A stretch of 64,000 bases of DNA, from assembly GCF_016026235.1 (NCBI RefSeq), contig NZ_CP065613.1; one strand, written 5' to 3'. Numbering within the stretch: position 1 is the stretch's first letter; the number at the start of each line of letters is the position of its first letter. This DNA is from Escherichia coli (GTDB lineage Bacteria > Pseudomonadota > Gammaproteobacteria > Enterobacterales > Enterobacteriaceae). The notes under the pieces were generated by a model, which had not been told where the DNA came from, made no database searches, and was given only the letters and a program-made list of their open reading frames with translations. A program made the translations under genes and the position numbers. Positions 3,467 through 20,844 of this stretch are shown piece by piece.

Positions 3467-3723
3467 CAGCGCAGCACCTCCTGCACCAGTTTTTCAAACT
3501 TTCCGACTCTGGTTTCCAGCTCTGCCACACAGTCCACCAGCTCATCTACTGCTTTCTGTGCGCGATGCTTCGCCTGCATCAGTTCCCGAAGCGCGGGTAC
3601 CATATCTTTACGGATAGCATCTTTTGTTATGCCCGTTTTTTCGAGTTGTTCAGCATGACGCAGCATTTCCTGCGCGTGTTTACGCAATTGTTCAGGGGTA
3701 AAAGTCATTGTCTGGTTGTTCAA
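3466..3723 (-). CDS. Hypothetical coiled-coil phage protein (85 aa)
   Basis: ORF translationally coupled at both ends (TGATG and ATGA overlaps) within the PR operon. Confidence 0.5.
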   Translation of the reverse strand: MNNQTMTFTPEQLRKHAQEMLRHAEQLEKTGITKDAIRKDMVPALRELMQAKHRAQKAVDELVDCVAELETRVGKFEKLVQEVLR

Positions 3724-4817
3724 AAGAAACGCTCCATCTTACTGCTGTCAGTTCGTTTATTACTGTATCTGCGCGGATTGCCGGGCTTCATGGGAGTGGA
3801 AAGCACCCGTGCACTTTCCTGGTCCACAGGCAGAAAATGTCCGTTATAAAAACGCCGGTAAATCGTTCCCAGAGAACCGTTACGTTGTTTCGTGATATTG
3901 ATTTCTGCGATGCCCCTGGCCTGCGTATCCGGGTTGTACACTTCATCCCTGTAAAGCATCAGAATGATGTCTGCATCCGCCTCTATTTCTCCGGAATTTT
4001 TCAGGTCTGAGTTCATGGGACGTTTATTGGGTCTGGACTCCACACCGCGGGAGAGCTGGCTCAGCGCAATCAACGGAAAACCACCGGATTTTGCCAGGCC
4101 TTTAAGCCCCTTTGAGATTTCACCCACGGCAAGGTCATGACGCCCCGTGGTTCGGGTTTTTATCAGCCCGAGATAATCAACCACCACCAGCGCCGTTTCC
4201 GGATGTTTAATCAGATGGTGTTTCGTTGTTGCGCATATCTCATCAATGGTCAGGTTCGCCTGGTCCACCATCCAGATATTGCGCCCGGTCATCCGCCCCA
4301 CCCCTTGTGAGAAACGCGCCCAGTCTTCATCTTCAAAGTGAGCCACAGATTTCAGGCGTGATACTGGCATCCCTCCAGCCGCAGACACCATACGTTCACC
4401 AATCTGGATGTTCGCCATCTCCATGGTGAACAGAAGCACACCATGCCCCTGCTCAGTCACCTTGTCGATGATGTCCAGCGCAAGTTCGGTTTTCCCCATC
4501 GAAGGACGAGCCGCAATAAATACCAGGTCGCCGGGCTCCATGCCGCCTGTTTTTGCGTCCAGTTCATCAATACCGGTCATCAACGTCCTGGATTTCTCCA
4601 GTCCCTGATTCCGGCATTCAACACGCTCAACCACCTCCGGAAGCACATCATCAATATGTACCGACTGAATAACGCCCTTTTCCGTCGACAATGAGGCCAT
4701 CATGTTCTGTGCATCCTTAAGAGCATCTTCAGCTGCTTCACAGGTATGCGCATTGAGGTAGCCTGAGTTTAACGGACACTCCTTCCTGAAATAGAATGGC
4801 ATCAGAAGGAGCTAATA

Positions 4818-5120
4818 ATGAGCAGAAAAAACCAACGTTACTCTAAAGAGTTCAAAGCCGAAGCTGTCAGAACGGTTCTTGAAAATCAACTTTCGATCAG
4901 TGAAGGCGCTTCCCGATTATCCCTTCCTGAAGGCACTTTAGGACAATGGGTTACCGCCGCCAGAAAAGGGCTCGGTACTCCTGGTTCCCGCACGGTGGCT
5001 GAACTGGAATCTGAAATTCTGCAACTGCGTAAGGCGTTAAATGAAGCTCGCCTTGAGCGAGATATATTAAAAAAAGCAACAGCGTATTTTGCACAGGAGT
5101 CGCTGAAAAATACGCGTTAA
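4818..5120 (+). CDS. IS600 OrfA (HTH transposase subunit)
   Basis: 100 aa, MSRKNQRYSKEFKAEAVR..., an IS3-family OrfA. It has Asn5 where the other two copies have Thr. Confidence 0.9.
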   Translation: MSRKNQRYSKEFKAEAVRTVLENQLSISEGASRLSLPEGTLGQWVTAARKGLGTPGSRTVAELESEILQLRKALNEARLERDILKKATAYFAQESLKNTR

Positions 5121-5155
5121 TCGAACAATGGCGACAACAATTTCCCATTGAAGCG

Positions 5156-5974
5156 ATGTGTCAGGTATTTGGTGTATCCAGGAGCGGTTATTACAACTGG
5201 GTACAGCATGAACCCTCAGACAGAAAACAAAGTGATGAGCGGCTAAAACTGGAGATTAAGGTGGCACATATCCGCACTCGCGAAACATATGGAACCCGGC
5301 GGCTCCAGACGGAGCTGGCAGAGAATGGCATCATCGTTGGTCGTGACCGACTGGCACGTCTTCGTAAGGAGCTAAGGCTACGCTGTAAGCAGAAACGCAA
5401 GTTCAGAGCGACTACGAACCCGAACCACAATCTGCCAGTTGCGCCAAATCTGCTGAACCAGACGTTCGCTCCTACAGCACCAAATCAGGTCTGGGTGGCG
5501 GACCTGACGTATGTTGCCACACAGGAGGGATGGTTGTACCTCGCTGGCATCAAAGATGTTTATACGTGCGAAATTGTCGGCTACGCCATGGGAGAGCGCA
5601 TGACAAAAGAGCTGACAGGTAAAGCCCTGTTTATGGCGCTCAGGAGCCAGCGCCCACCTGCCGGGCTAATCCACCACTCTGATCGAGGTTCACAGTACTG
5701 CGCATACGATTACCGGGTCATACAGGAGCAGTCTGGTCTGAAAACATCAATGTCGCGTAAAGGTAACTGTTACGACAACGCTCCGATGGAAAGCTTCTGG
5801 GGAACGCTGAAAAATGAGAGCCTGAGCCACTATCGTTTTAATAACCGGGATGAAGCCATCTCAGTAATACGGGAATACATTGAGATTTTCTACAATCGTC
5901 AGCGTCGTCACTCTCGTCTGGGGAATATCTCCCCGGCAGCCTTCAGGGAAAAATATCATCAGATGGCTGCTTAA
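5156..5974 (+). CDS. IS600 OrfB (DDE integrase domain; expressed as an OrfAB fusion by -1 frameshift)
   Basis: 272 aa carrying the rve-type motifs VWVADLTY, HSDRGSQY and DNAPMESFW. Confidence 0.9.
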   Translation: MCQVFGVSRSGYYNWVQHEPSDRKQSDERLKLEIKVAHIRTRETYGTRRLQTELAENGIIVGRDRLARLRKELRLRCKQKRKFRATTNPNHNLPVAPNLLNQTFAPTAPNQVWVADLTYVATQEGWLYLAGIKDVYTCEIVGYAMGERMTKELTGKALFMALRSQRPPAGLIHHSDRGSQYCAYDYRVIQEQSGLKTSMSRKGNCYDNAPMESFWGTLKNESLSHYRFNNRDEAISVIREYIEIFYNRQRRHSRLGNISPAAFREKYHQMAA

Positions 5975-6374
5975 AAAAAGAACAAATGGTAGTGTCCGCT
6001 ATTGCCAGTACACCTCACATCGCGTAATTTCTGTAATGCCTCGTTCAGTGTTTTTTCTGCATCGCGCAGTGCGGCATTGCGCCGCAACGCTGCAACATAG
6101 TGCTCCAGTGAAGACTTCACCCAGGTTTTACGCCCGGTATCAGTAATCACCGGGGCAAGTTCTGGCATCTCATTGCACAACAGCACAGGATCAATCACGC
6201 CGGACACACGGGCCTGTCTGCAGATGCCTGTGTAGATATCCCGGTACGGTCGTACAGAAAAAACGTCCGCCGGTAGTGTGGCCAGAATATCCATCACTTC
6301 AGGATCTGCTCCGCGCAGAAAGAACGCGCCGATGACAGCGCCTTCAAGGTCATCGTTACGCCATACTGGAGTTG

Positions 6375-8172: not shown

Positions 8173-8392
8173 AGCCACCTCCCAGGCGTTTAAACATTTT
8201 TCCGGACTGAAACGCCACCAGCGGATAACTCAGGGTATGAGTACGTCCCTGAACCTGGCAGACAACCTTCTGGCTTTCTGTATTGACCAGGCAAACCCGC
8301 AGAACGTGGCCGTTGCTGGTGGTGAACCACTGCCCCACTCGGGGGCAACGGTTGTATCGGTGATACAGGGAATTAACGATGCGGCGAATCAT
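8159..8392 (-). CDS. Small phage protein, DUF4222-like (77 aa)
   Basis: ATGA coupling to the upstream Rha gene. GQWFTTSNGHVLRVCLV... follows the same pattern as the ORFs at 9977-10153 and 17560-17802. Confidence 0.4.
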   Translation of the reverse strand: MIRRIVNSLYHRYNRCPRVGQWFTTSNGHVLRVCLVNTESQKVVCQVQGRTHTLSYPLVAFQSGKMFKRLGGGYASV

Positions 8393-8952
8393 GGACGCAC
8401 CTCCTTGTCAGAACCATTCAGCCTGGAATCAACAAGTGCAGCACCAAAAACAGCATCACCTACACGGTCGTACAGTTTGCTGGCCAGCGGAGATTCAACA
8501 GCCTTAAGCATTGGGTAAAGCTGGCTTGTCCAGATTTGATGGATTTCACGCAAATGCAGGTATACGCCTCTGGCGTTTTGTGCGACAGATGACATGTCAG
8601 CCGCACCAGCTCCTGATAAGCTCCTCTCCATCTGGTTAAAGGCATTGATGTATGCCTCTTTGAACCGGGCGGCACGTTTACCAGTGAAGCCCATAGCAAG
8701 GAAGGCGAAGCCGTCGCGGGTGATTTGGTAGCAGGGAAGTTTGCGAGTACCGCCGTTGGGCTGGCGTACCAAAATTGATGTCTCCGCAAAATTGCGGGCA
8801 CAAAACTCTGGAGAACAATCCAAAATGCGGATCTTTTTCAGAACATCGTCATGACGTTTAGAGAAGAAGTTGGCAACAGCCAGGGATGAAGTAACAGCCT
8901 GACCATCAACGATGGCAATTTCAGGTTGAGTGAGGGTTGGGATCGTAGCCAT
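8389..8952 (-). CDS. Phage regulatory protein Rha family (187 aa)
   Basis: MATIPTLTQPEIAIVDGQAVTSSLAVANFFSKRHDDVLKKIR... has the Rha N-terminal signature. AAGAGG lies upstream of the ATG at 8952. It is only the 3' third of the 620-aa track ORF. Confidence 0.75.
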   Translation of the reverse strand: MATIPTLTQPEIAIVDGQAVTSSLAVANFFSKRHDDVLKKIRILDCSPEFCARNFAETSILVRQPNGGTRKLPCYQITRDGFAFLAMGFTGKRAARFKEAYINAFNQMERSLSGAGAADMSSVAQNARGVYLHLREIHQIWTSQLYPMLKAVESPLASKLYDRVGDAVFGAALVDSRLNGSDKEVRP

Positions 8953-9306
8953 GATGGCAGCCTCTTTGGTGATTTTTAATAACTCACCACCAAAGCTTCT
9001 CACGGCAATAGGTGGTGAGACGTACAGGGGTGAGAAACCGGTCACCAAAGAACCCGGCCCAACCGAAGTTGGCCCTGCACGCCCCACCATAATTTGGGCG
9101 TAATGCTGCTCATGACACAAAAAAACCGCAAGAGCGCGGTTGTGCGCTTTGGTGAATTCCGGGTTCTCACGCCCGGCACCCGCTTTATAAGGTGCGGAGA
9201 CAGTGTAACGTCCCGAAATTGCAGAATCAATATCAAAATGTTGTAGCTGTGGACAACGCGAAGCCTTGTTGTTATTGTTTACAACAAGAACCAGAGGAAG
9301 CTTTAA

Positions 9307-9594
9307 ATGCCATCCAGACTGTATAAACAGTTCATCCGTCATCTCGGTGAATCTGAATACATACGAATCCGCATATGGGAAGTGGAGCCTGCTGTATTGG
9401 GTAGCCAGCACAACTACAAATACAGCATGGCTTATGTCGTTGATGGCATGTGTGTGATGCGTTACGACAACGAACGGGGTAAAGGCGATCACAAACACAT
9501 TGGTAGTCAGGAAGTCAGCACCAGCTTTGTCACCATTGAACAACTGCTCGCTGATTTTCTGGCTGACGTTGAATCCATCCGCAGAGGTATCTGA
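9307..9594 (+). CDS. TumE-like (DUF6516) putative toxin, 95 aa
   Basis: KYSMAYVVDGMCVMRYDNERGKGDHKHIG...FVTIEQLLADFLADVESIR matches the DUF6516/TumE pattern (YDNERGKGDH.H) as I recall it. Confidence 0.6.
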   Translation: MPSRLYKQFIRHLGESEYIRIRIWEVEPAVLGSQHNYKYSMAYVVDGMCVMRYDNERGKGDHKHIGSQEVSTSFVTIEQLLADFLADVESIRRGI

Positions 9595-9595
9595 C

Positions 9596-9955
9596 ATGAG
9601 AACCGTAACAATCCGAATCGAGTCAATGGATAATTTCACGGCTGATGTGCTGTCTGCGTTCCAGGAAGCAGCTACCGGAGCAAAAGCAACCAGAGAAAAC
9701 GTTATTTCATTTCCTGACTGGCAAATGATGCATAAGGTACTGACACCAAAACGCATGGACATTCTGATGGCAATGACTGGTGCCGGAGAAATGTCCATCC
9801 GAAAAATTGCAGCCCTGGTTGGACGTGATGTAAAAAGCGTGCATACTGACGTGACCGCACTCATCAGCAACGGTTTACTGGAAAAAAGCGAGCGCGGAAC
9901 GTCATTCCCGTATGACGACATCCACTTTGATTTTACGCTGGGCAAGGCGGCGTAA
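9596..9955 (+). CDS. HTH DNA-binding protein, TumA / COG4190-like putative antitoxin (119 aa)
   Basis: The ATG lies 1 nt after the upstream stop codon. MRTVTIRIESMD...LTPKRMDILMAMTGAGEMSIRKIAALVGRDVKSVHTDVTALISNGLLEK is a winged HTH. Confidence 0.6.
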   Translation: MRTVTIRIESMDNFTADVLSAFQEAATGAKATRENVISFPDWQMMHKVLTPKRMDILMAMTGAGEMSIRKIAALVGRDVKSVHTDVTALISNGLLEKSERGTSFPYDDIHFDFTLGKAA

Positions 9956-9976
9956 TTTTTCGTATATACCGTGCCG

Positions 9977-10153
9977 TCATTCCGGCGGCGCTTCACACTC
10001 CACAAAATCACGCCTGAACAACCACAACGGGCTGAAACATTCGTACGGATAGCCGTCACGCAGGTAAATGACTCGCTGCGTTTCAGACTCCCAGCGTATA
10101 ACGTGGACACGACGCCCCCTTCCGTCACGGAACCAGCGATTGAGGACTTGCAT
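9977..10153 (-). CDS. Small phage protein, DUF4222-like (58 aa, below the ORF-track cutoff)
   Basis: Hand translation gives MQVLNRWFRDGRGRRVHVIRWESETQRVIYLRDGYPYECFSPLWLFRRDFVECEAPPE. It lies directly downstream of the second Rha-type gene. Confidence 0.5.
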   Translation of the reverse strand: MQVLNRWFRDGRGRRVHVIRWESETQRVIYLRDGYPYECFSPLWLFRRDFVECEAPPE

Positions 10154-10172
10154 AAATTACCCGTAAACATTG

Positions 10173-10886
10173 TCACACCTTCCAGCCAGTAGCCTGAAAC
10201 AGGCCCATTCTCGGGTGATACCAGCGGGTACCACGCTGAACGGCACCACACATCATGTGATGAAACGCCTTCAGAAACGGTTCCACAGCAACAATTTCAC
10301 GACGTGCCAGTAATCCATCTGGCGTCAAAAATTCATGAGTGTCTGTCGGGATGTTGTATGCATTTACAAGCGTGCGACATTTCGCATCTGACATACCGGT
10401 TTTTGCTTTCAGCTGGCGATATCCGGCATAGCCCTCTCGAATGGTACCCTTTTTGATTTGCTCAACTGTTTCGGCTACGTGGCTGATTTTTTCTTCCACC
10501 TGAGTGATCCGTTTCTGCTGACGAACAGCCTCGAGCGCCATTGCGGCCACCATTTCGATTTCGCTCATTGGTTTGCGGATCTGTTCTTCCAGTTCGCGCC
10601 AGCGATCTACCAGGCGAGCAGTGAATTCAGGACAGAGCTGTGCGACGACAATGATGCTGTCGCGCTTACCTTGTTCTCCTTCAAACAGGTAATGCTCATA
10701 TTGAACTTTAAAACCTAAGTTATTGATTCTTTCGGAAACCTCAATTTGAGGAGACCGGACAACGCCACCTTTGGCTAATGTTTCAATAGTGCGTTTCACA
10801 TTGTCATGACGCTTACCCACCAGTTCTGCGATCTCAACGCTGGTCATGGATGCTTTGTCGTTAAAAATTGCGGTGTTCACTGCCAT
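10173..10886 (-). CDS. Rha-family regulator / antirepressor-like protein
   Basis: MTSVEIAELVGKRHDNVKRTIETLAKGGV... is a Rha-type N-terminus, followed by a coiled-coil and a KilAC-like C-terminus. The start is uncertain (ATG 10886, GTG 10880 or track start 10922), and AAGGAG lies adjacent. Confidence 0.7.
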   Translation of the reverse strand: MAVNTAIFNDKASMTSVEIAELVGKRHDNVKRTIETLAKGGVVRSPQIEVSERINNLGFKVQYEHYLFEGEQGKRDSIIVVAQLCPEFTARLVDRWRELEEQIRKPMSEIEMVAAMALEAVRQQKRITQVEEKISHVAETVEQIKKGTIREGYAGYRQLKAKTGMSDAKCRTLVNAYNIPTDTHEFLTPDGLLARREIVAVEPFLKAFHHMMCGAVQRGTRWYHPRMGLFQATGWKV

Positions 10887-10999
10887 CTCCTTACGGATAA
10901 ATTCTTTTAAGATTCCGCACATTCGTACTTGTTGGTGCCGAACCTTCCTTCAGTTATCCTTTTGATCCCTATAAACAAAAGAACCAAAGGAGGTTCGAC

Positions 11000-11293
11000 A
11001 TGAAAGTTCAGGCCGTTGGTTTATTCTGGTTTCGCGATGCGATTCAGTATCATGAGCTCAAAAATATTTTTACTGATGCTGATGTGCTCTCCGACAGTTA
11101 CACCGAGTGGAAACACGACGCTGAAAAATTGATTAAGCGTGTCGAAAGAAGCGGGCAACGAGTTATTAAAGTTGAAGCGGATACAGCCGAGTTCATCACC
11201 TGGTGTACAAGCGAAGGCATTGGACTCAATGCCGAAGGTAGAATGCAGTTCGCATCCTTTAAGGCTTACCAACAACTTCTCAGCGAACGCTAA
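11000..11293 (+). CDS. Hypothetical 97-aa protein (moron antisense to the PR operon)
   Basis: Strong RBS in AAAGGAGGTTCGACATG. The composition is protein-like. An 8-bp-stem hairpin at 11300-11324 follows the stop codon. Confidence 0.55.
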   Translation: MKVQAVGLFWFRDAIQYHELKNIFTDADVLSDSYTEWKHDAEKLIKRVERSGQRVIKVEADTAEFITWCTSEGIGLNAEGRMQFASFKAYQQLLSER

Positions 11294-11363
11294 TGTGATT
11301 GGGGCAATCGAAATTGTTGCCCCATCGTATTTAATAGTTATTTTTTCGCTCATATCACCACCA

Positions 11364-11573
11364 TCACTTCTCATCCTCTGTGTGCGCTAAGCTTGGATGT
11401 GTATATGGAATGTTCGGATCCAGATGGCAGAGAATGGCAACATCCTCCGGAACGCCCCGCGTTTTCCACTTTCCAACTCCCTGACTACCACGAGGCTTTC
11501 CTTTCTTTGGGAACCTGCGGCCAATAGCGGCATTGGTTTTAAATTGAGTTTTTAATATTTCATAAAGGGTCAT
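11364..11573 (-). CDS. Cro-like regulator (YdaS/Cro HTH family), 69 aa
   Basis: Divergent from the cI-like gene across a 110-bp operator region. First gene of the rightward (minus-strand) operon. GSQGVGKWKTRGVPEDVAILCHLD resembles the YdaS-type HTH. Confidence 0.65.
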   Translation of the reverse strand: MTLYEILKTQFKTNAAIGRRFPKKGKPRGSQGVGKWKTRGVPEDVAILCHLDPNIPYTHPSLAHTEDEK

Positions 11574-11684
11574 TCTTTAGCCTCACACCGGATACTCTGT
11601 TATCCAAGAATGTTAAACATGAGAATCCAAAGTATCAAGATATTCTGTTACTTTAGTATCAGCAGCCATGAAAGGAGAAGAAAA

Positions 11685-12341
11685 ATGAAATCTTTAGGTG
11701 AACGGCTAATCAACGCACGACAAAAAGCTGGGTTAACGCAAGATGCGTTGGCTAAAAAAGCAGGGGTCACCAGAGTTGCAATCAGTAAAGCCGAGCAAGG
11801 CCTTACAAAAAGTTTCAACGGTGACACCCTTTTTAAAGTCGCAGCTGCACTGCAGTGTTCACCGCAGTGGCTTCAGAACGGAGATGAGAAAGGTAAGCAT
11901 TGGGAAAATAATGTTAAGAGTTGCCCCCAGAGGGACACAGCACACTCTTACCCTGTAATTAACTGGGTTCAGGCAGGATTATTCACAACTGCAGGTGATG
12001 ACTACAACATGTATGATCAGGATAACTGGAGGCATTCTGTAAAATACGCTGGTGAGAGGGGGTTCTGGCTGGAAGTGCACGGAGACTCAATGACTTCGCC
12101 TATAGGAATAACATTTCCTGAAGGAATGTCGATCCTTGTCAACCCAGATAAAGAAGTTTTTTCAGGGTGTTACGTCATTGCCAGAAAAAAATCCACCAAT
12201 GAAGCAACATTCAAAAAATATATTTCTGAAATGGGAAAGGCGTTTCTAAAGCCCCTTAATCCACAATACCCAATCATAGAAATGGACAATGATTGCGAAA
12301 TAGTAGGCGTTGTGGTTGATGCCAGATGGGATATTTTCTGA
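11685..12341 (+). CDS. CI-like prophage repressor (N-terminal Xre HTH + S24 LexA-type autopeptidase)
   Basis: The HTH is LTQDALAKKAGVTRVAISKAEQG. The S24 motifs are a VQAG cleavage-site-like segment, GDSMTSP and FKKY. The RBS is AAAGGAGAAGAAAAATG. Trimmed from the track start at 11610. Confidence 0.85.
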   Translation: MKSLGERLINARQKAGLTQDALAKKAGVTRVAISKAEQGLTKSFNGDTLFKVAAALQCSPQWLQNGDEKGKHWENNVKSCPQRDTAHSYPVINWVQAGLFTTAGDDYNMYDQDNWRHSVKYAGERGFWLEVHGDSMTSPIGITFPEGMSILVNPDKEVFSGCYVIARKKSTNEATFKKYISEMGKAFLKPLNPQYPIIEMDNDCEIVGVVVDARWDIF

Positions 12342-12443: not shown

Positions 12444-12893
12444 ATGATCAATAAAGCTACAACTCTTGACTGTCTCGAAGAACTGAAAAACCTCGGCAGC
12501 CTCATTACACTAATAGCAAAAGCAACGGCAGATGCTACGCTCTCTAGCGATATAGAGTCATGCGCAGGACTGGCATGGGATATGACAAATAGCATATCCA
12601 GAAAGCTATCGTCAGCAATGCTTTTACAGAACAAAAATTCTGCAATCAACAACCGCCTTCGCACCCAACGCGAAGCCTGCGGCTTAACAACAGCCGAACT
12701 CGCCAGGCTGCTCGATCTCGATGAAGAAATTATCATCCAGTGGGAGAGCGGAGAGTATGAACCAACTATCAGTATGCTTATCCCACTGGCAAATATTCTT
12801 GGCTGCGATCCGATGTGGCTGTTAACTGGTGAGGTTACTCCTCCGGAGCAACCAAAAAGTGAGGAGCAGCAACACCATGACGCATCTCAATAA
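12444..12893 (+). CDS. Xre-family HTH protein with an 65-aa N-terminal extension
   Basis: The C-terminal half NNRLRTQREACGLTTAELARLLDLDEEIIIQWESGEYEPTISMLIPLANILGCDPMWLLTGE is a canonical HTH_3 domain. Confidence 0.6.
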   Translation: MINKATTLDCLEELKNLGSLITLIAKATADATLSSDIESCAGLAWDMTNSISRKLSSAMLLQNKNSAINNRLRTQREACGLTTAELARLLDLDEEIIIQWESGEYEPTISMLIPLANILGCDPMWLLTGEVTPPEQPKSEEQQHHDASQ

Positions 12894-15022: not shown

Positions 15023-15820
15023 AAAAAACAATTGCGCTTGTTTTCGCGGTCAGTCTGGCTGTCTTCGGACTTGTAGGTTGCGATCGCGTTGAACCAGGTA
15101 ATGTGGGTATCAAAGTCAACAAACTGGGCGACGACAAAGGTGTCGGTGAAGTGGTCGGTGTTGGTCGCTACTGGACTGGCTGGAATACTGAAGTTTACAT
15201 TTTCCCGACCTTCAAGCAAATGAAGACCTACGATGAACCGTTCAGTTTCCAGATGAGTGACGGCACAACCATCGGCTATCACATCGGCGTGGCCTACAAA
15301 GTTGATCCATCCAAAGTTACCACGGTGTTTCAGACTTACCGCAAAGGCGTGGATGACATTACCAACACCGACCTGCGCCAGAAGATCGCCGACGCACTCA
15401 ATCGGCTGGCCAGCAAAATGACCACCGACAAATTTATTGACGGCGGCAAGTCTGAACTACTGGATGCCGCACTTAAAGACATTCAGGAAGAGATGACACC
15501 CATCGGCATTCAGGTAATGAGCCTCTCTTATGTAGGTAAACCGGAATACCCTCCAACCGTTATCGACAGCATTAACGCCAAAGTCACGGCAAACCAGAAA
15601 ACCCTGCAGCGCGAACAGGAAGTCAAGCAACGTGAAGCGGAGGCCAACATGCTACGTGCGGAAGCTGCCGGACAGGCTGATGCCATTCGAACAAAAGCCC
15701 AGGCAGAAGCCGATGCCATTCGTTTACGCGGCGAAGCTCTACGCCAGAACCCAGGCGTCATGGAGCTGGAAGCCATCAACAAGTGGAACGGTACACTGCC
15801 GCAATACATGACCAGTGGTG
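15019..15820 (+). pseudogene. SPFH/band-7 (prohibitin-like) lipoprotein, 3' end cut by IS600
   Basis: The lipobox is LVGC after the signal peptide. An SPFH core is followed by an Ala/Glu-rich coiled coil. IS600 begins at 15821, and the frame then reads through into unrelated sequence after the IS. Confidence 0.75.
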
Positions 15821-15884
15821 TGAGGTAGCCTGAGTTTAACGGACACTCCTTCCTGAAATAGAATGGCATCAGAAGGAGCTAATA

Positions 15885-16187
15885 ATGAGCAGAAAAACCC
15901 AACGTTACTCTAAAGAGTTCAAAGCCGAAGCTGTCAGAACGGTTCTTGAAAATCAACTTTCGATCAGTGAAGGCGCTTCCCGATTATCTCTTCCTGAAGG
16001 CACTTTAGGACAATGGGTTACCGCCGCCAGAAAAGGGCTCGGTACTCCTGGTTCCCGCACGGTGGCTGAACTGGAATCTGAAATTCTGCAACTGCGTAAG
16101 GCGTTAAATGAAGCTCGCCTTGAGCGAGATATATTAAAAAAAGCAACAGCGTATTTTGCACAGGAGTCGCTGAAAAATACGCGTTAA
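15885..16187 (+). CDS. IS600 OrfA
   Basis: Identical to copy 3 OrfA, starting MSRKTQ.... Confidence 0.9.
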   Translation: MSRKTQRYSKEFKAEAVRTVLENQLSISEGASRLSLPEGTLGQWVTAARKGLGTPGSRTVAELESEILQLRKALNEARLERDILKKATAYFAQESLKNTR

Positions 16188-16222
16188 TCGAACAATGGCG
16201 ACAACAATTTCCCATTGAAGCG

Positions 16223-17041
16223 ATGTGTCAGGTATTTGGTGTATCCAGGAGCGGTTATTACAACTGGGTACAGCATGAACCCTCAGACAGAAAACAAAGT
16301 GATGAGCGGCTAAAACTGGAGATTAAGGTGGCACATATCCGCACTCGCGAAACATATGGAACCCGGCGGCTCCAGACGGAGCTGGCAGAGAATGGCATCA
16401 TCGTTGGTCGTGACCGACTGGCACGTCTTCGTAAGGAGCTAAGGCTACGCTGTAAGCAGAAACGCAAGTTCAGAGCGACTACGAACCCGAACCACAATCT
16501 GCCAGTTGCGCCAAATCTGCTGAACCAGACGTTCGCTCCTACAGCACCAAATCAGGTCTGGGTGGCGGACCTGACGTATGTTGCCACACAGGAGGGATGG
16601 TTGTACCTCGCTGGCATCAAAGATGTTTATACGTGCGAAATTGTCGGCTACGCCATGGGAGAGCGCATGACAAAAGAGCTGACAGGTAAAGCCCTGTTTA
16701 TGGCGCTCAGGAGCCAGCGCCCACCTGCCGGGCTAATCCACCACTCTGATCGAGGTTCACAGTACTGCGCATACGATTACCGGGTCATACAGGAGCAGTC
16801 TGGTCTGAAAACATCAATGTCGCGTAAAGGTAACTGTTACGACAACGCTCCGATGGAAAGCTTCTGGGGAACGCTGAAAAATGAGAGCCTGAGCCACTAT
16901 CGTTTTAATAACCGGGATGAAGCCATCTCAGTAATACGGGAATACATTGAGATTTTCTACAATCGTCAGCGTCGTCACTCTCGTCTGGGGAATATCTCCC
17001 CGGCAGCCTTCAGGGAAAAATATCATCAGATGGCTGCTTAA
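16223..17041 (+). CDS. IS600 OrfB
   Basis: Identical to copy 1 OrfB. Confidence 0.9.
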   Translation: MCQVFGVSRSGYYNWVQHEPSDRKQSDERLKLEIKVAHIRTRETYGTRRLQTELAENGIIVGRDRLARLRKELRLRCKQKRKFRATTNPNHNLPVAPNLLNQTFAPTAPNQVWVADLTYVATQEGWLYLAGIKDVYTCEIVGYAMGERMTKELTGKALFMALRSQRPPAGLIHHSDRGSQYCAYDYRVIQEQSGLKTSMSRKGNCYDNAPMESFWGTLKNESLSHYRFNNRDEAISVIREYIEIFYNRQRRHSRLGNISPAAFREKYHQMAA

Positions 17042-17150
17042 AAAAAGAACAAATGGTAGTGTCCGCTATTGCCAGTACACCTCAGTGCCAATACACCATT
17101 TATCCAGATTAAATAACTTATATGCCCGGCAGGCCGCCGGGCTAAGGGAA

Positions 17151-18197: not shown

Positions 18198-19476
18198 TTT
18201 AATGCCATGAAGTATGTAAGCTCGTATCGCTCTTGGGCGTCTGGAGGTATCAATGGATAAAGTCAAATATCCAACAGGCGTCGAAAACCACGGTGGCACA
18301 TTACGCATCTGGTTTAATTTTAAAGGTAAACGTGTCAGGGAAAATCTTGGTGTCCCTGACACTGCCAAGAACAGGAAGATCGCCGGAGAGCTGCGGACAT
18401 CTGTATGTTTTGCCATTCGTACAGGAAATTTTGATTATGCTGCGCAGTTCCCTGACTCTCCTAACCTCAAGGCTTTTGGGGTAAATAAAAAAGAAATTAC
18501 GGTGAAAGAACTTGAAGAAAAATGGCTGGATCTGAAACGAATGGAAATCTCTGCAAATGCATTCAATCGCTATGAATCCATTGCAAGGATGATGGTTCCG
18601 AAGATTGGTGGCAACCGACTGGTATCAGCAGTGACCAAAGAGGAATTGCTGTATATCAGGAAAGATTTGCTGACCGGATACCAAAATCCAACAAAAGGTA
18701 AAGCTCCAGTAAAAGGACGAAGCGTTGTCACAGTAAATTATTACATGACAACAATCGCTGGAATGTTTCAGTTTGCTGCAGATCACGGTTACATAGAAGC
18801 AAATCCCTTCGAGGGAATTAAGCCTCTTAAAAGAGCCAGGGCAGAACCAGATCCGCTAACTCGTGACGAATTTATTCGCCTGATAGATGCTTGCCGGCAT
18901 CAGCAGACAAAAAACCTGTGGTCATTGGCTGTGTACACAGGAATGCGTCATGGTGAACTGGTCTCCCTGGCCTGGGAAGATATCGATCTGAAAGCAGGAA
19001 CAATTACTATCAGGCGCAATTATACGAAACTCGGTGAGTTCACTCTACCTAAAACTGAAGCAAGTACAAACAGGGTTGTGCATCTTATCCAGCCCGCTAT
19101 CAGTGTCCTGAAAAATCAGGCTGAAATGACAAGACTGGGTAAGCAGCACAACATCAAGGTTCAACTACGTGAATATGGACGTTCAGTAAATCATGAATGT
19201 ACTTTCGTATTTAACCCCCAGGTGGTTAGAAAAAGCAAACAGGTAGGTTTTATCTACAAGGTAGATTCCATTGGCGACTCATGGGAAACAGCCATTAAAC
19301 GTGCAGGCATCAGGCATCGAAAGGCATACCAGTCACGACACACTTATGCGTGCTGGTCATTATCTGCCGGAGCAAATCCAAGCTTCATTGCCAGCCAGAT
19401 GGGGCATGCAAGTGAGGTAGCCTGAGTTTAACGGACACTCCTTCCTGAAATAGAATGGCATCAGAAGGAGCTAATA

Positions 19477-19779
19477 ATGAGCAGAAAAACCCAACGTTAC
19501 TCTAAAGAGTTCAAAGCCGAAGCTGTCAGAACGGTTCTTGAAAATCAACTTTCGATCAGTGAAGGCGCTTCCCGATTATCCCTTCCTGAAGGCACTTTAG
19601 GACAATGGGTTACCGCCGCCAGAAAAGGGCTCGGTACTCCTGGCTCCCGCACGGTGGCTGAACTGGAATCTGAAATTCTGCAACTGCGTAAGGCGTTAAA
19701 TGAAGCTCGCCTTGAGCGAGATATATTAAAAAAAGCAACAGCGTATTTTGCACAGGAGTCGCTGAAAAATACGCGTTAA
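19477..19779 (+). CDS. IS600 OrfA
   Basis: 100 aa, identical in protein sequence to copy 2. Confidence 0.9.
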   Translation: MSRKTQRYSKEFKAEAVRTVLENQLSISEGASRLSLPEGTLGQWVTAARKGLGTPGSRTVAELESEILQLRKALNEARLERDILKKATAYFAQESLKNTR

Positions 19780-19814
19780 TCGAACAATGGCGACAACAAT
19801 TTCCCATTGAAGCG

Positions 19815-20633
19815 ATGTGTCAGGTATTTGGTGTATCCAGGAGCGGTTATTACAACTGGGTACAGCATGAACCCTCAGACAGAAAACAAAGTGATGAGCG
19901 GCTAAAACTGGAGATTAAGGTGGCACATATCCGCACTCGCGAAACATATGGAACCCGGCGGCTCCAGACGGAGCTGGCAGAGAATGGCATCATCGTTGGT
20001 CGTGACCGACTGGCACGTCTTCGTAAGGAGCTAAGGCTACGCTGTAAGCAGAAACGCAAGTTCAGAGCGACTACGAACCCGAACCACAATCTGCCAGTTG
20101 CGCCAAATCTGCTGAACCAGACGTTCGCTCCTACAGCACCAAATCAGGTCTGGGTGGCGGACCTGACGTATGTTGCCACACAGGAGGGATGGTTGTACCT
20201 CGCTGGCATCAAAGATGTTTATACGTGCGAAATTGTCGGCTACGCCATGGGAGAGCGCATGACAAAAGAGCTGACAGGTAAAGCCCTGTTTATGGCGCTC
20301 AGGAGCCAGCGCCCACCTGCCGGGCTAATCCACCACTCTGATCGAGGTTCACAGTACTGCGCATACGATTACCGGGTCATACAGGAGCAGTTTGGTCTGA
20401 AAACATCAATGTCGCGTAAAGGTAACTGTTACGACAACGCTCCGATGGAAAGCTTCTGGGGAACGCTGAAAAATGAGAGCCTGAGCCACTATCGTTTTAA
20501 TAACCGGGATGAAGCCATCTCAGTAATACGGGAATACATTGAGATTTTCTACAATCGTCAGCGTCGTCACTCTCGTCTGGGGAATATCTCCCCGGCAGCC
20601 TTCAGGGAAAAATATCATCAGATGGCTGCTTAA
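19815..20633 (+). CDS. IS600 OrfB
   Basis: 272 aa. It has one substitution relative to copies 1 and 2 (EQFGLK versus EQSGLK). Confidence 0.9.
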   Translation: MCQVFGVSRSGYYNWVQHEPSDRKQSDERLKLEIKVAHIRTRETYGTRRLQTELAENGIIVGRDRLARLRKELRLRCKQKRKFRATTNPNHNLPVAPNLLNQTFAPTAPNQVWVADLTYVATQEGWLYLAGIKDVYTCEIVGYAMGERMTKELTGKALFMALRSQRPPAGLIHHSDRGSQYCAYDYRVIQEQFGLKTSMSRKGNCYDNAPMESFWGTLKNESLSHYRFNNRDEAISVIREYIEIFYNRQRRHSRLGNISPAAFREKYHQMAA

Positions 20634-20844
20634 AAAAAGAACAAATGGTAGTGTCCGCTATTGCCAGTACACCTCAAAGTGCCCAGATGGTGTTCAATGT
20701 ATACGGAGCATGGATGACTGACAGCAATGCAGAACAGATCGCAATGCTGAATCAGAAGCTGGCAGATTATGTCCCAATGATGTCCCATGGTCACCAAAGT
20801 GACACAAGAGGCTTATTAAAATCAGTGAGTTAGCTTTTAATACC

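Follow-up and report, generated by a model that had tools for sequence, protein, structure and literature searches.

A conserved small-protein gene facing cro in the immunity region of a phiP27-like lambdoid prophage of Escherichia coli

The stretch of Escherichia coli DNA analyzed here, referred to as the window, comprises 64,000 nucleotides of contig NZ_CP065613.1 and includes a phiP27-like lambdoid prophage with its immunity region (for an overview see Table 1). Within this region, a plus-strand open reading frame of 97 codons, ORF97, is convergent with the gene in the cro position and with the PR-like promoter preceding it (11638-11610, minus strand), as proposed in an earlier note on this DNA, which had described ORF97 as opposing PR transcription. 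The gene for the CI-type repressor is located 392 bp 3' of ORF97 on the same strand, and the HTH protein encoded directly 3' of cI may represent a second regulator of the switch. The cro-position gene is 94-100% identical in loci of the phiP27 type. The early operon consists of cro, two Rha genes, an O-like and a DnaC-like gene, and no CP76-type CII was identified among its products by Pfam. As judged from the sequence, the first of the two Rha genes probably starts at the ATG at position 10886 and not at the longest-ORF start at 10922; this ATG is preceded by the Shine-Dalgarno sequence AAGGAG, and the RefSeq coding sequence of the SCU-105 homologue has a length of 708 bp.

The minus-strand early operon is interrupted by a second plus-strand cassette, which encodes a TumE/TumA-like pair and is situated between the two Rha genes at a distance of 1 kb from ORF97. 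A 620-aa ORF in this area (8389-10251, minus strand) is an artefact: it joins the second Rha gene, whose start is at 8952, to antisense sequence of TumE/TumA. A related TumE/TumA pair, 54% and 40% identical to that of the window, occurs in a metagenomic phage (locus L038, 3773-4391), where it is located about 600 bp upstream of an ORF97 homologue on the same strand. In addition, the window contains three copies of a 1,265-bp element which are 99.8-100% identical (4754-6017, 15820-17084 and 19412-20676, all on the plus strand). The element encodes ORFs of 100 and 272 aa and is IS3-family-like by layout alone. The prophage is probably IS-riddled or decayed.

Table 1. Features of the immunity region and its surroundings (positions are those of the window).
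Feature	Position	Strand	Evidence or remark
TumE toxin and TumA-like HVO_A0114 wHTH protein	9307-9955	+	Pfam: PF20126, E 2e-15 (TumE); E 1e-24 (wHTH)
Rha/Ant-type regulator, next early-operon gene	10173-10886	-	Pfam Phage_pRha; phrog_63
Segment missing from empty-site relatives, 475 bp	10892-11366		BLASTN break points against LC567842 and LC567819
Conserved 5' block of the cassette, 68 bp	10932-10999	+	Alignments; abrupt start at TTGGTGCCGAACC
Small 5-bp hairpin followed by a T-run	10981-10996	-	Scan; complement of the ORF97 RBS region
Shine-Dalgarno sequence AAAGGAGG of ORF97	10986-10993	+	Read directly; 6 nt 5' of the ATG
ORF97 coding sequence, 97 aa	11000-11293	+	294 bp, ATG start; PHROG 4753 member
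117-aa shadow ORF, not a gene	11021-11374	-	No family match; variability favours the plus frame
Conserved stem-loop directly after the ORF97 stop codon	11300-11324	+	Scan: 9 pairs (5 G-C), 7-nt loop
cro-position gene, 69 aa	11364-11573	-	phrog_4749; convergent with ORF97
PR-like sigma-70 promoter 5' of cro, TTGATA-17-TAACAT	11610-11638	-	Promoter scan; consensus match only
CI-type repressor	11685-12341	+	Pfam: HTH_3, E 1e-14; Peptidase_S24, E 1.1e-22; phrog_4
149-aa HTH protein, directly 3' of cI	12444-12893	+	phrog_4739 and phrog_4836 ('CII-like regulator'); DicA-like (NCBIfam)

The plus-strand ORF, its ribosome-binding site and the hairpin behind its stop codon, as described in the earlier note, are all present in the sequence, and ORF97 is coding and under purifying selection. 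Among eight close-family lineages, the variable columns were distributed over the plus-frame codon positions 1, 2 and 3 as 45/22/82, and pairwise dN/dS amounted to 0.03-0.19, with dS being near saturation. The core GGAG of the Shine-Dalgarno sequence was found unchanged in an alignment of nine divergent lineages. Taken together, the low dN/dS values, a full-length match to a PHROG profile and more than 1,100 homologous clusters (see below) place the plus-strand gene beyond chance.

The opposite possibility, namely that the 117-aa minus-strand ORF, read from 11374 to 11021 as part of the PR operon, is the actual gene and ORF97 a chance ORF, draws on the state of the antisense frame. This frame is open in close relatives of ORF97: in register (window 11021-11293), no stop codon occurs in any of five enterobacterial lineages (L003, L033, L035, L036 and L037), against about seven expected altogether on the basis of local codon usage. 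A minus-strand ORF has also been called by the annotators of the Elizabethkingia phage EKP1. However, the antisense frame is interrupted by stops in distant relatives, with one to three of them in distant members of PHROG 4753, and the start codon of the minus-strand ORF is not conserved among relatives. A minus-strand gene would, moreover, put the highest variability at plus position 1, which is not what the 45/22/82 distribution displays, and the minus-strand ORF yielded no family match in Pfam or PHROG, whereas the plus-frame product is modelled at a pLDDT of 95. The distribution of variability over the codon positions and the plus-frame dN/dS effectively refute the minus-strand ORF as a real gene, and we regard this reading as extremely improbable. 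The earlier note, which had dismissed the minus-strand ORF as poor and shadowed, was therefore correct on this point.

In phage EKP1 (L080, OM284015), the annotation places the antisense shadow ORF at 3564-3896 on the minus strand, and a tblastn search identified a PHROG 4753 homologue at 3501-3785 on the plus strand. Calling the shadow ORF in place of the PHROG 4753 gene is probably a recurring mis-annotation.

ORF97 is listed in RefSeq as hypothetical protein WP_000867914.1 and matched phrog_4753 over its full length (residues 1-97 on profile positions 1-97 of 97, E 3.8e-49). A profile search of 1.8 billion cluster representatives returned 1,133 relatives at E <= 0.001. The designation as an orphan gene in the earlier note thus had to be abandoned. 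ORF97 belongs to a catalogued family, and accessory cassettes in phage immunity regions are of a known kind; PHROG 4753 is ORF97's own family, from which it does not differ and which is itself without functional annotation. The gene is carried by 87 of 5,426 complete E. coli genomes. Its close relatives, with identities of 73-97% and a uniform length of 95-97 aa, occur in Escherichia, Klebsiella, Salmonella, Serratia and Pectobacterium, and a relative is also present in a Phytobacter prophage. Nearly all members of the family are stand-alone proteins of about 100 aa, apart from a few with tandem domain repeats (P0019, P0025 and P0038), and the longer or tandem members did not contain informative fused domains according to Pfam. 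Residues W10, D26, W37, G52, W68, C69 and R81 are near-invariant throughout the family.

Comparison to characterized families gave no indication of function. When 100 diverse homologues were analyzed, all of them were assigned to PHROG 4753 and none matched any Pfam family, and their source names are uniformly 'hypothetical protein' or similar. ORF97 itself has no significant match in Pfam or NCBIfam. Specifically, neither an HTH nor a DUF1870 match (Pfam, E <= 1), no defence-system family (PADLOC, E <= 1) and no CII or CP76 family (Pfam, NCBIfam and PHROG) was found, and Pfam, NCBIfam and PADLOC gave no signature of DNA binding, of an enzyme, a membrane protein, a toxin or a known defence system. 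Literature searches on WP_000867914, phrog_4753 and genes opposite cro/cII, and also on L13 of phage phiP27, returned nothing relevant.

To gain a view of the protein, its structure was modelled by AlphaFold2. Based on a deep alignment, the model reached a pLDDT of 95.2 and a pTM of 0.84, and it replaced a model from a shallow alignment (pLDDT 62), which was set aside. In the prediction, strand 5-10 is followed by helix 14-23, helix 34-50, strand 54-59, helix 62-72 and helix 78-96, and the model shows a small two-strand, four-helix alpha/beta domain without an HTH. Profile searches against the sequences of the PDB returned chance-level matches only. By topology, the model corresponds to the C-terminal domain of SO3848 from Shewanella oneidensis (PDB 2OX6), an Aca2/YdiL-like protein in which an N-terminal HTH is followed by an extended C-terminal domain built from a pair of parallel strands, one additional helix and another two helices at the C-terminus (PMC8434428). 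The residue correspondence between the two is inferred, the sequence identity is 11%, and SO3848 is itself without a known function. In contrast to SO3848, the ORF97 model starts directly with strand 5-10, and no three-helix bundle, as expected for the HTH of Aca2, YdiL or SO3848, precedes it. In Aca2 and YdiL, a small strand-helix-helix-strand module mediates dimerization (PMC8434428), and it is through this module that ORF97 may be likened to Aca2, the anti-CRISPR-associated repressor of phage ZF40, and to YdiL (DUF1870). As it has an SO3848-like C-terminal topology and lacks the HTH, ORF97 appears to match the dimer-forming part of these proteins that does not bind DNA. The model therefore suggests that the product is soluble and self-associating, like the C-terminal dimerization part of SO3848, and the tandem-repeat members of the family fit such a self-associating unit.

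The borders of the element became apparent upon comparison with related phages. Homology to the Stx phages LC567842 and LC567819 breaks at window position 10891 and resumes at 11367 (BLASTN). In both phages, cro overlaps the start of Rha, indicating that the insertion site is empty there. The 475-bp segment present in the window accordingly contains the cassette and, in addition, supplies Rha with a new ribosome-binding site and cro with a new 3' end. In phiP27, the closest sequenced phage, the same slot is occupied by an unrelated plus-strand gene, L13, encoding a 223-aa protein with a hydrophobic segment. Conservation across lineages starts at position 10932 and stops just past the stem-loop, so that the cassette of about 450 bp consists of a 68-bp leader with a strong Shine-Dalgarno sequence, the 294-bp ORF and the conserved stem-loop. 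Its spacing is constant: across lineages, the start of the left neighbour is located about 80 bp from the ATG of ORF97, and the stop codon of the cro-type gene about 75 bp past the stop codon of ORF97, and this was observed with Rha, with a CP76-type CII and with other genes in the left-hand position. Within E. coli, the same cassette adjoins several cro/cI (immunity) types.

Conservation in related prophages, which the earlier note had suggested as a check, gave a twofold answer, as close relatives carry the cassette, lack it or have another gene in its place, and the linkage of the cassette to cro and cI is retained in distant phages. Disruption of the ORF in close relatives, named in the same note as an argument against the gene, was found in two of 37 loci only (L026 and L031), in which the homologue has a nonsense codon at codon 36 or 37. 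A few further truncated or frameshifted variants exist in the databases. The gene is therefore dispensable, at least in resident prophages, yet is usually kept intact. At L031, the flanking genes are 99-100% identical to those of the window and the ORF97 allele is a different, disrupted one, a mismatch which suggests recombination within the cassette.

Like lysogen cargo or morons such as rexAB, bor and lom of lambda or L13 of phiP27, ORF97 constitutes a discrete opposite-strand insertion between two operon genes, and it shares with morons the patchy presence among relatives and a stem-loop 3' of the gene. As is typical for a moron, it is absent at the same junction in close relatives, i.e., the Stx phages and phiP27. 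It differs from typical morons in that a consensus scan did not recognize a promoter of its own, and in that its family retains cro and cI as neighbours across very divergent phages.

Signals for transcription and RNA structure were less clear than those for translation. A scan for sigma-70 consensus promoters gave no site 5' of ORF97, either in the window or in L003, L033 and L038, but weak or activator-dependent promoters may escape such a scan. Inspection of the leader by eye revealed no LexA box, no CII-type TTGC repeats and no sigma-54 motif. The stem-loop behind the gene, with a stem of about 9-10 bp, has a folding energy of -16.6 kcal/mol (z = -3.0 relative to shuffled sequences). Across nine lineages, 95.6% of the cells were paired, compared to 31-59% when the partners were slid, and two pairs were altered on both sides; a column-shuffle control did not reach significance, as the sequences vary little. 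The tail past the hairpin, TCGTATTTAA, is a poor U-tract in the window. A T-tail occurs in the E. coli lineage only and is absent in L003, L033 and L038, and hence the hairpin qualifies as terminator-like in the E. coli lineage and not in these three loci. The statement of the earlier note that the gene is strongly signalled thus holds for translation and not for transcription, as there is no consensus promoter and the terminator-like tail is restricted to a single lineage.

The leader carries a conserved inverted repeat, whose arms CGAACCTTCC (10939-10948) and GGAGGTTCG (10989-10997) bracket it. In the predicted consensus fold, the upstream arm pairs with the Shine-Dalgarno sequence and the ATG and could make both inaccessible. 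The covariation term for this fold was unfavourable, with double changes at two pairs only. At L036, both GAACC copies and the GGTTC arm of the leader are changed together, and these changes are not compensatory. On the opposite strand, the small hairpin with its T-run (10996-10981) recurs in L033 and L038. As its stem is weak, we infer rather than assign a function, which would be that of a weak, putative terminator-like site for PR transcripts.

The placement of the gene is retained far beyond its close relatives. Homologues with an identity of 27-40% are still convergent with a Cro-type gene and located upstream of a repressor gene on the repressor strand. In three metagenomic phages (L041, L043 and L044), a minus-strand gene for a CP76-type CII is followed by the plus-strand homologue, a minus-strand Cro-type gene and a plus-strand repressor gene, and a similar arrangement was observed at L040 and L042. 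At L003 and L035, the cassette is located exactly between the genes for a CP76 CII and a P22_Cro. In Burkholderia phage Bcep176, the homologue is gp17, one of the genes gp15-gp20, which share a strand; the last gene of this series encodes a repressor-like HTH protein, and the series is divergent from the CII-like gp14. Based on crude gene calls, the product of the first downstream neighbour was assigned by Pfam to YdaS at seven, to P22_Cro at six and to HTH_3 at three of 36 loci, and that of the second to Peptidase_S24 at 11 of 34. By means of a locally iterated HMM, a repressor-like HTH gene was detected 240-1150 bp downstream on the same strand at 22 of the 35 loci with enough sequence, and at least 14 of these 22 loci have a small minus-strand Cro-like gene in between. 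No conserved upstream partner gene emerged, as neighbours of 77-79 aa at L040, L041 and L043 are unrelated to each other and to gp15 and gp16 of Bcep176. The layout of a type II toxin-antitoxin system is likewise not apparent, as ORF97 stands alone on its strand within the window.

This comparison also bears on the position of ORF97 relative to cII. The earlier note had located it where cII would be expected, which may be read as a replacement of this gene. In the Stx relatives, however, cro leads straight into Rha, and relatives with a CP76-type CII carry both genes, with the cassette between cro and cII. ORF97 is therefore no stand-in for cII; judged by gene order, it is a separate element at the 3' end of cro on the repressor strand.

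Based on these results, we tentatively favour an interpretation in which ORF97, encoded on the lysogenic strand, is an accessory protein and not essential. It would be made when PR is quiet, self-associate and bind a generic protein partner. Expression is predicted to occur in the lysogen or during the establishment of lysogeny; as ORF97 opposes PR, it would be productively expressed mainly when PR is weak or repressed. The product would act by binding another protein and not DNA. Since the same cassette adjoins several different immunity types, the target would be a generic host factor or a conserved phage factor rather than a particular Cro or CI. The benefit would fall to the lysogenic state, either by stabilizing lysogeny or by protecting the lysogen. 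That the same minus-strand operon contains another plus-strand cassette, TumE/TumA, is a point in favour of an accessory cassette.

A more integral role is conceivable, in which ORF97 is the first gene of an establishment transcript and an activator-dependent, PRE- or pE-like promoter in the leader would read through ORF97, the stem-loop and anti-cro into cI. Production of a lysogeny-favouring protein would in this way be tied to lysogenic transcription and to interference with PR. The position of the cassette matches that of lambda PRE and 186 pE, with which it shares the site between cro (apl) and cII and the direction, antisense to cro and towards cI. In 186, the promoter pE, convergent with pR, is activated by CII and gives rise to CI and Int (PMC8538670). 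The loci with the cassette between CP76-type CII and P22_Cro (L003 and L035) and the similar ones (L041 and L043) agree with such a role, as does the gp15-gp20 run of Bcep176 divergent from its CII-like gene. The missing consensus promoter fits activator dependence, and read-through is plausible outside E. coli, since the hairpin lacks a U-tract there. On the other hand, the leaders of lambda PRE and 186 pE do not encode a protein upstream of cI. In the window, neither CII-type binding repeats nor a CII gene were found, and the stem-loop, which has a terminator-like tail here, may end the transcript. As the leader is conserved whatever the left neighbour and the early operon of the window lacks a CP76-type CII, one specific activator is unlikely. 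The cassette is also missing from close relatives that presumably still lysogenize, and nonsense alleles occur, rendering a role as an establishment gene rather unlikely. If, conversely, ORF97 were ordinary lysogen cargo for superinfection exclusion, defence or anti-defence, the junction would merely tolerate insertions and no role in the switch would be required. Such cargo would explain why the slot is filled by L13 in phiP27, why presence and absence vary among relatives, why the cassette is found with several immunity types, and why TumE/TumA occupies a similar plus-strand slot 1 kb away and also occurs near the homologue of L038. Nevertheless, there is no PADLOC match, the product is a single small soluble domain without enzymatic or membrane features, and cargo rarely retains its neighbours at about 30% identity across phages of Gamma- and Betaproteobacteria, and we consider plain cargo to be unlikely as well.

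The function may also be sought mainly at the level of DNA or RNA, with convergent transcription, the stem-loop and the minus-strand hairpin forming a tR1-like brake on PR read-through and the protein being secondary. The cassette occupies the place of lambda tR1 right after cro, its spacing to both neighbours is constant, the stem-loop is conserved and the terminator-like hairpin on the minus strand recurs at L033 and L038. This hairpin has only five pairs, however, and strong purifying selection on the protein, near-invariant Trp, Asp, Cys and Arg positions in a family of more than 1,100 clusters and a confidently predicted fold all argue for the protein, so that a function mainly of the nucleic acid appears very doubtful.

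The preferred interpretation as an accessory protein leaves some tension with the deep linkage to cro and cI, which is unusual for ordinary cargo and speaks for a more integral part in the switch. The two options offered by the earlier note, a moron or a regulator of the lysis-lysogeny switch, hence remain the right pair, the former fitting the patchy cassette and the latter its persistent linkage to cro and cI. In a broader and, in our view, rather improbable version, PHROG 4753 would be an unrecognized, widely conserved switch accessory of temperate phages of Proteobacteria, an HTH-less SO3848/Aca2-like domain that modulates a regulator or a host factor, e.g., a protease or RecA, and thereby biases the decision towards lysogeny.

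On its own, ORF97 overturns nothing, being an annotated hypothetical protein of a catalogued family. The family, in turn, comprises more than 1,000 clusters without a Pfam model or any literature that we found, and combines a confident fold with a recurrent site facing cro. It is this family-wide placement next to cro that is worth an experiment, and PHROG 4753 provides a cheap and well-defined target to address whether lambdoid and 186-like switches hold an overlooked extra player.
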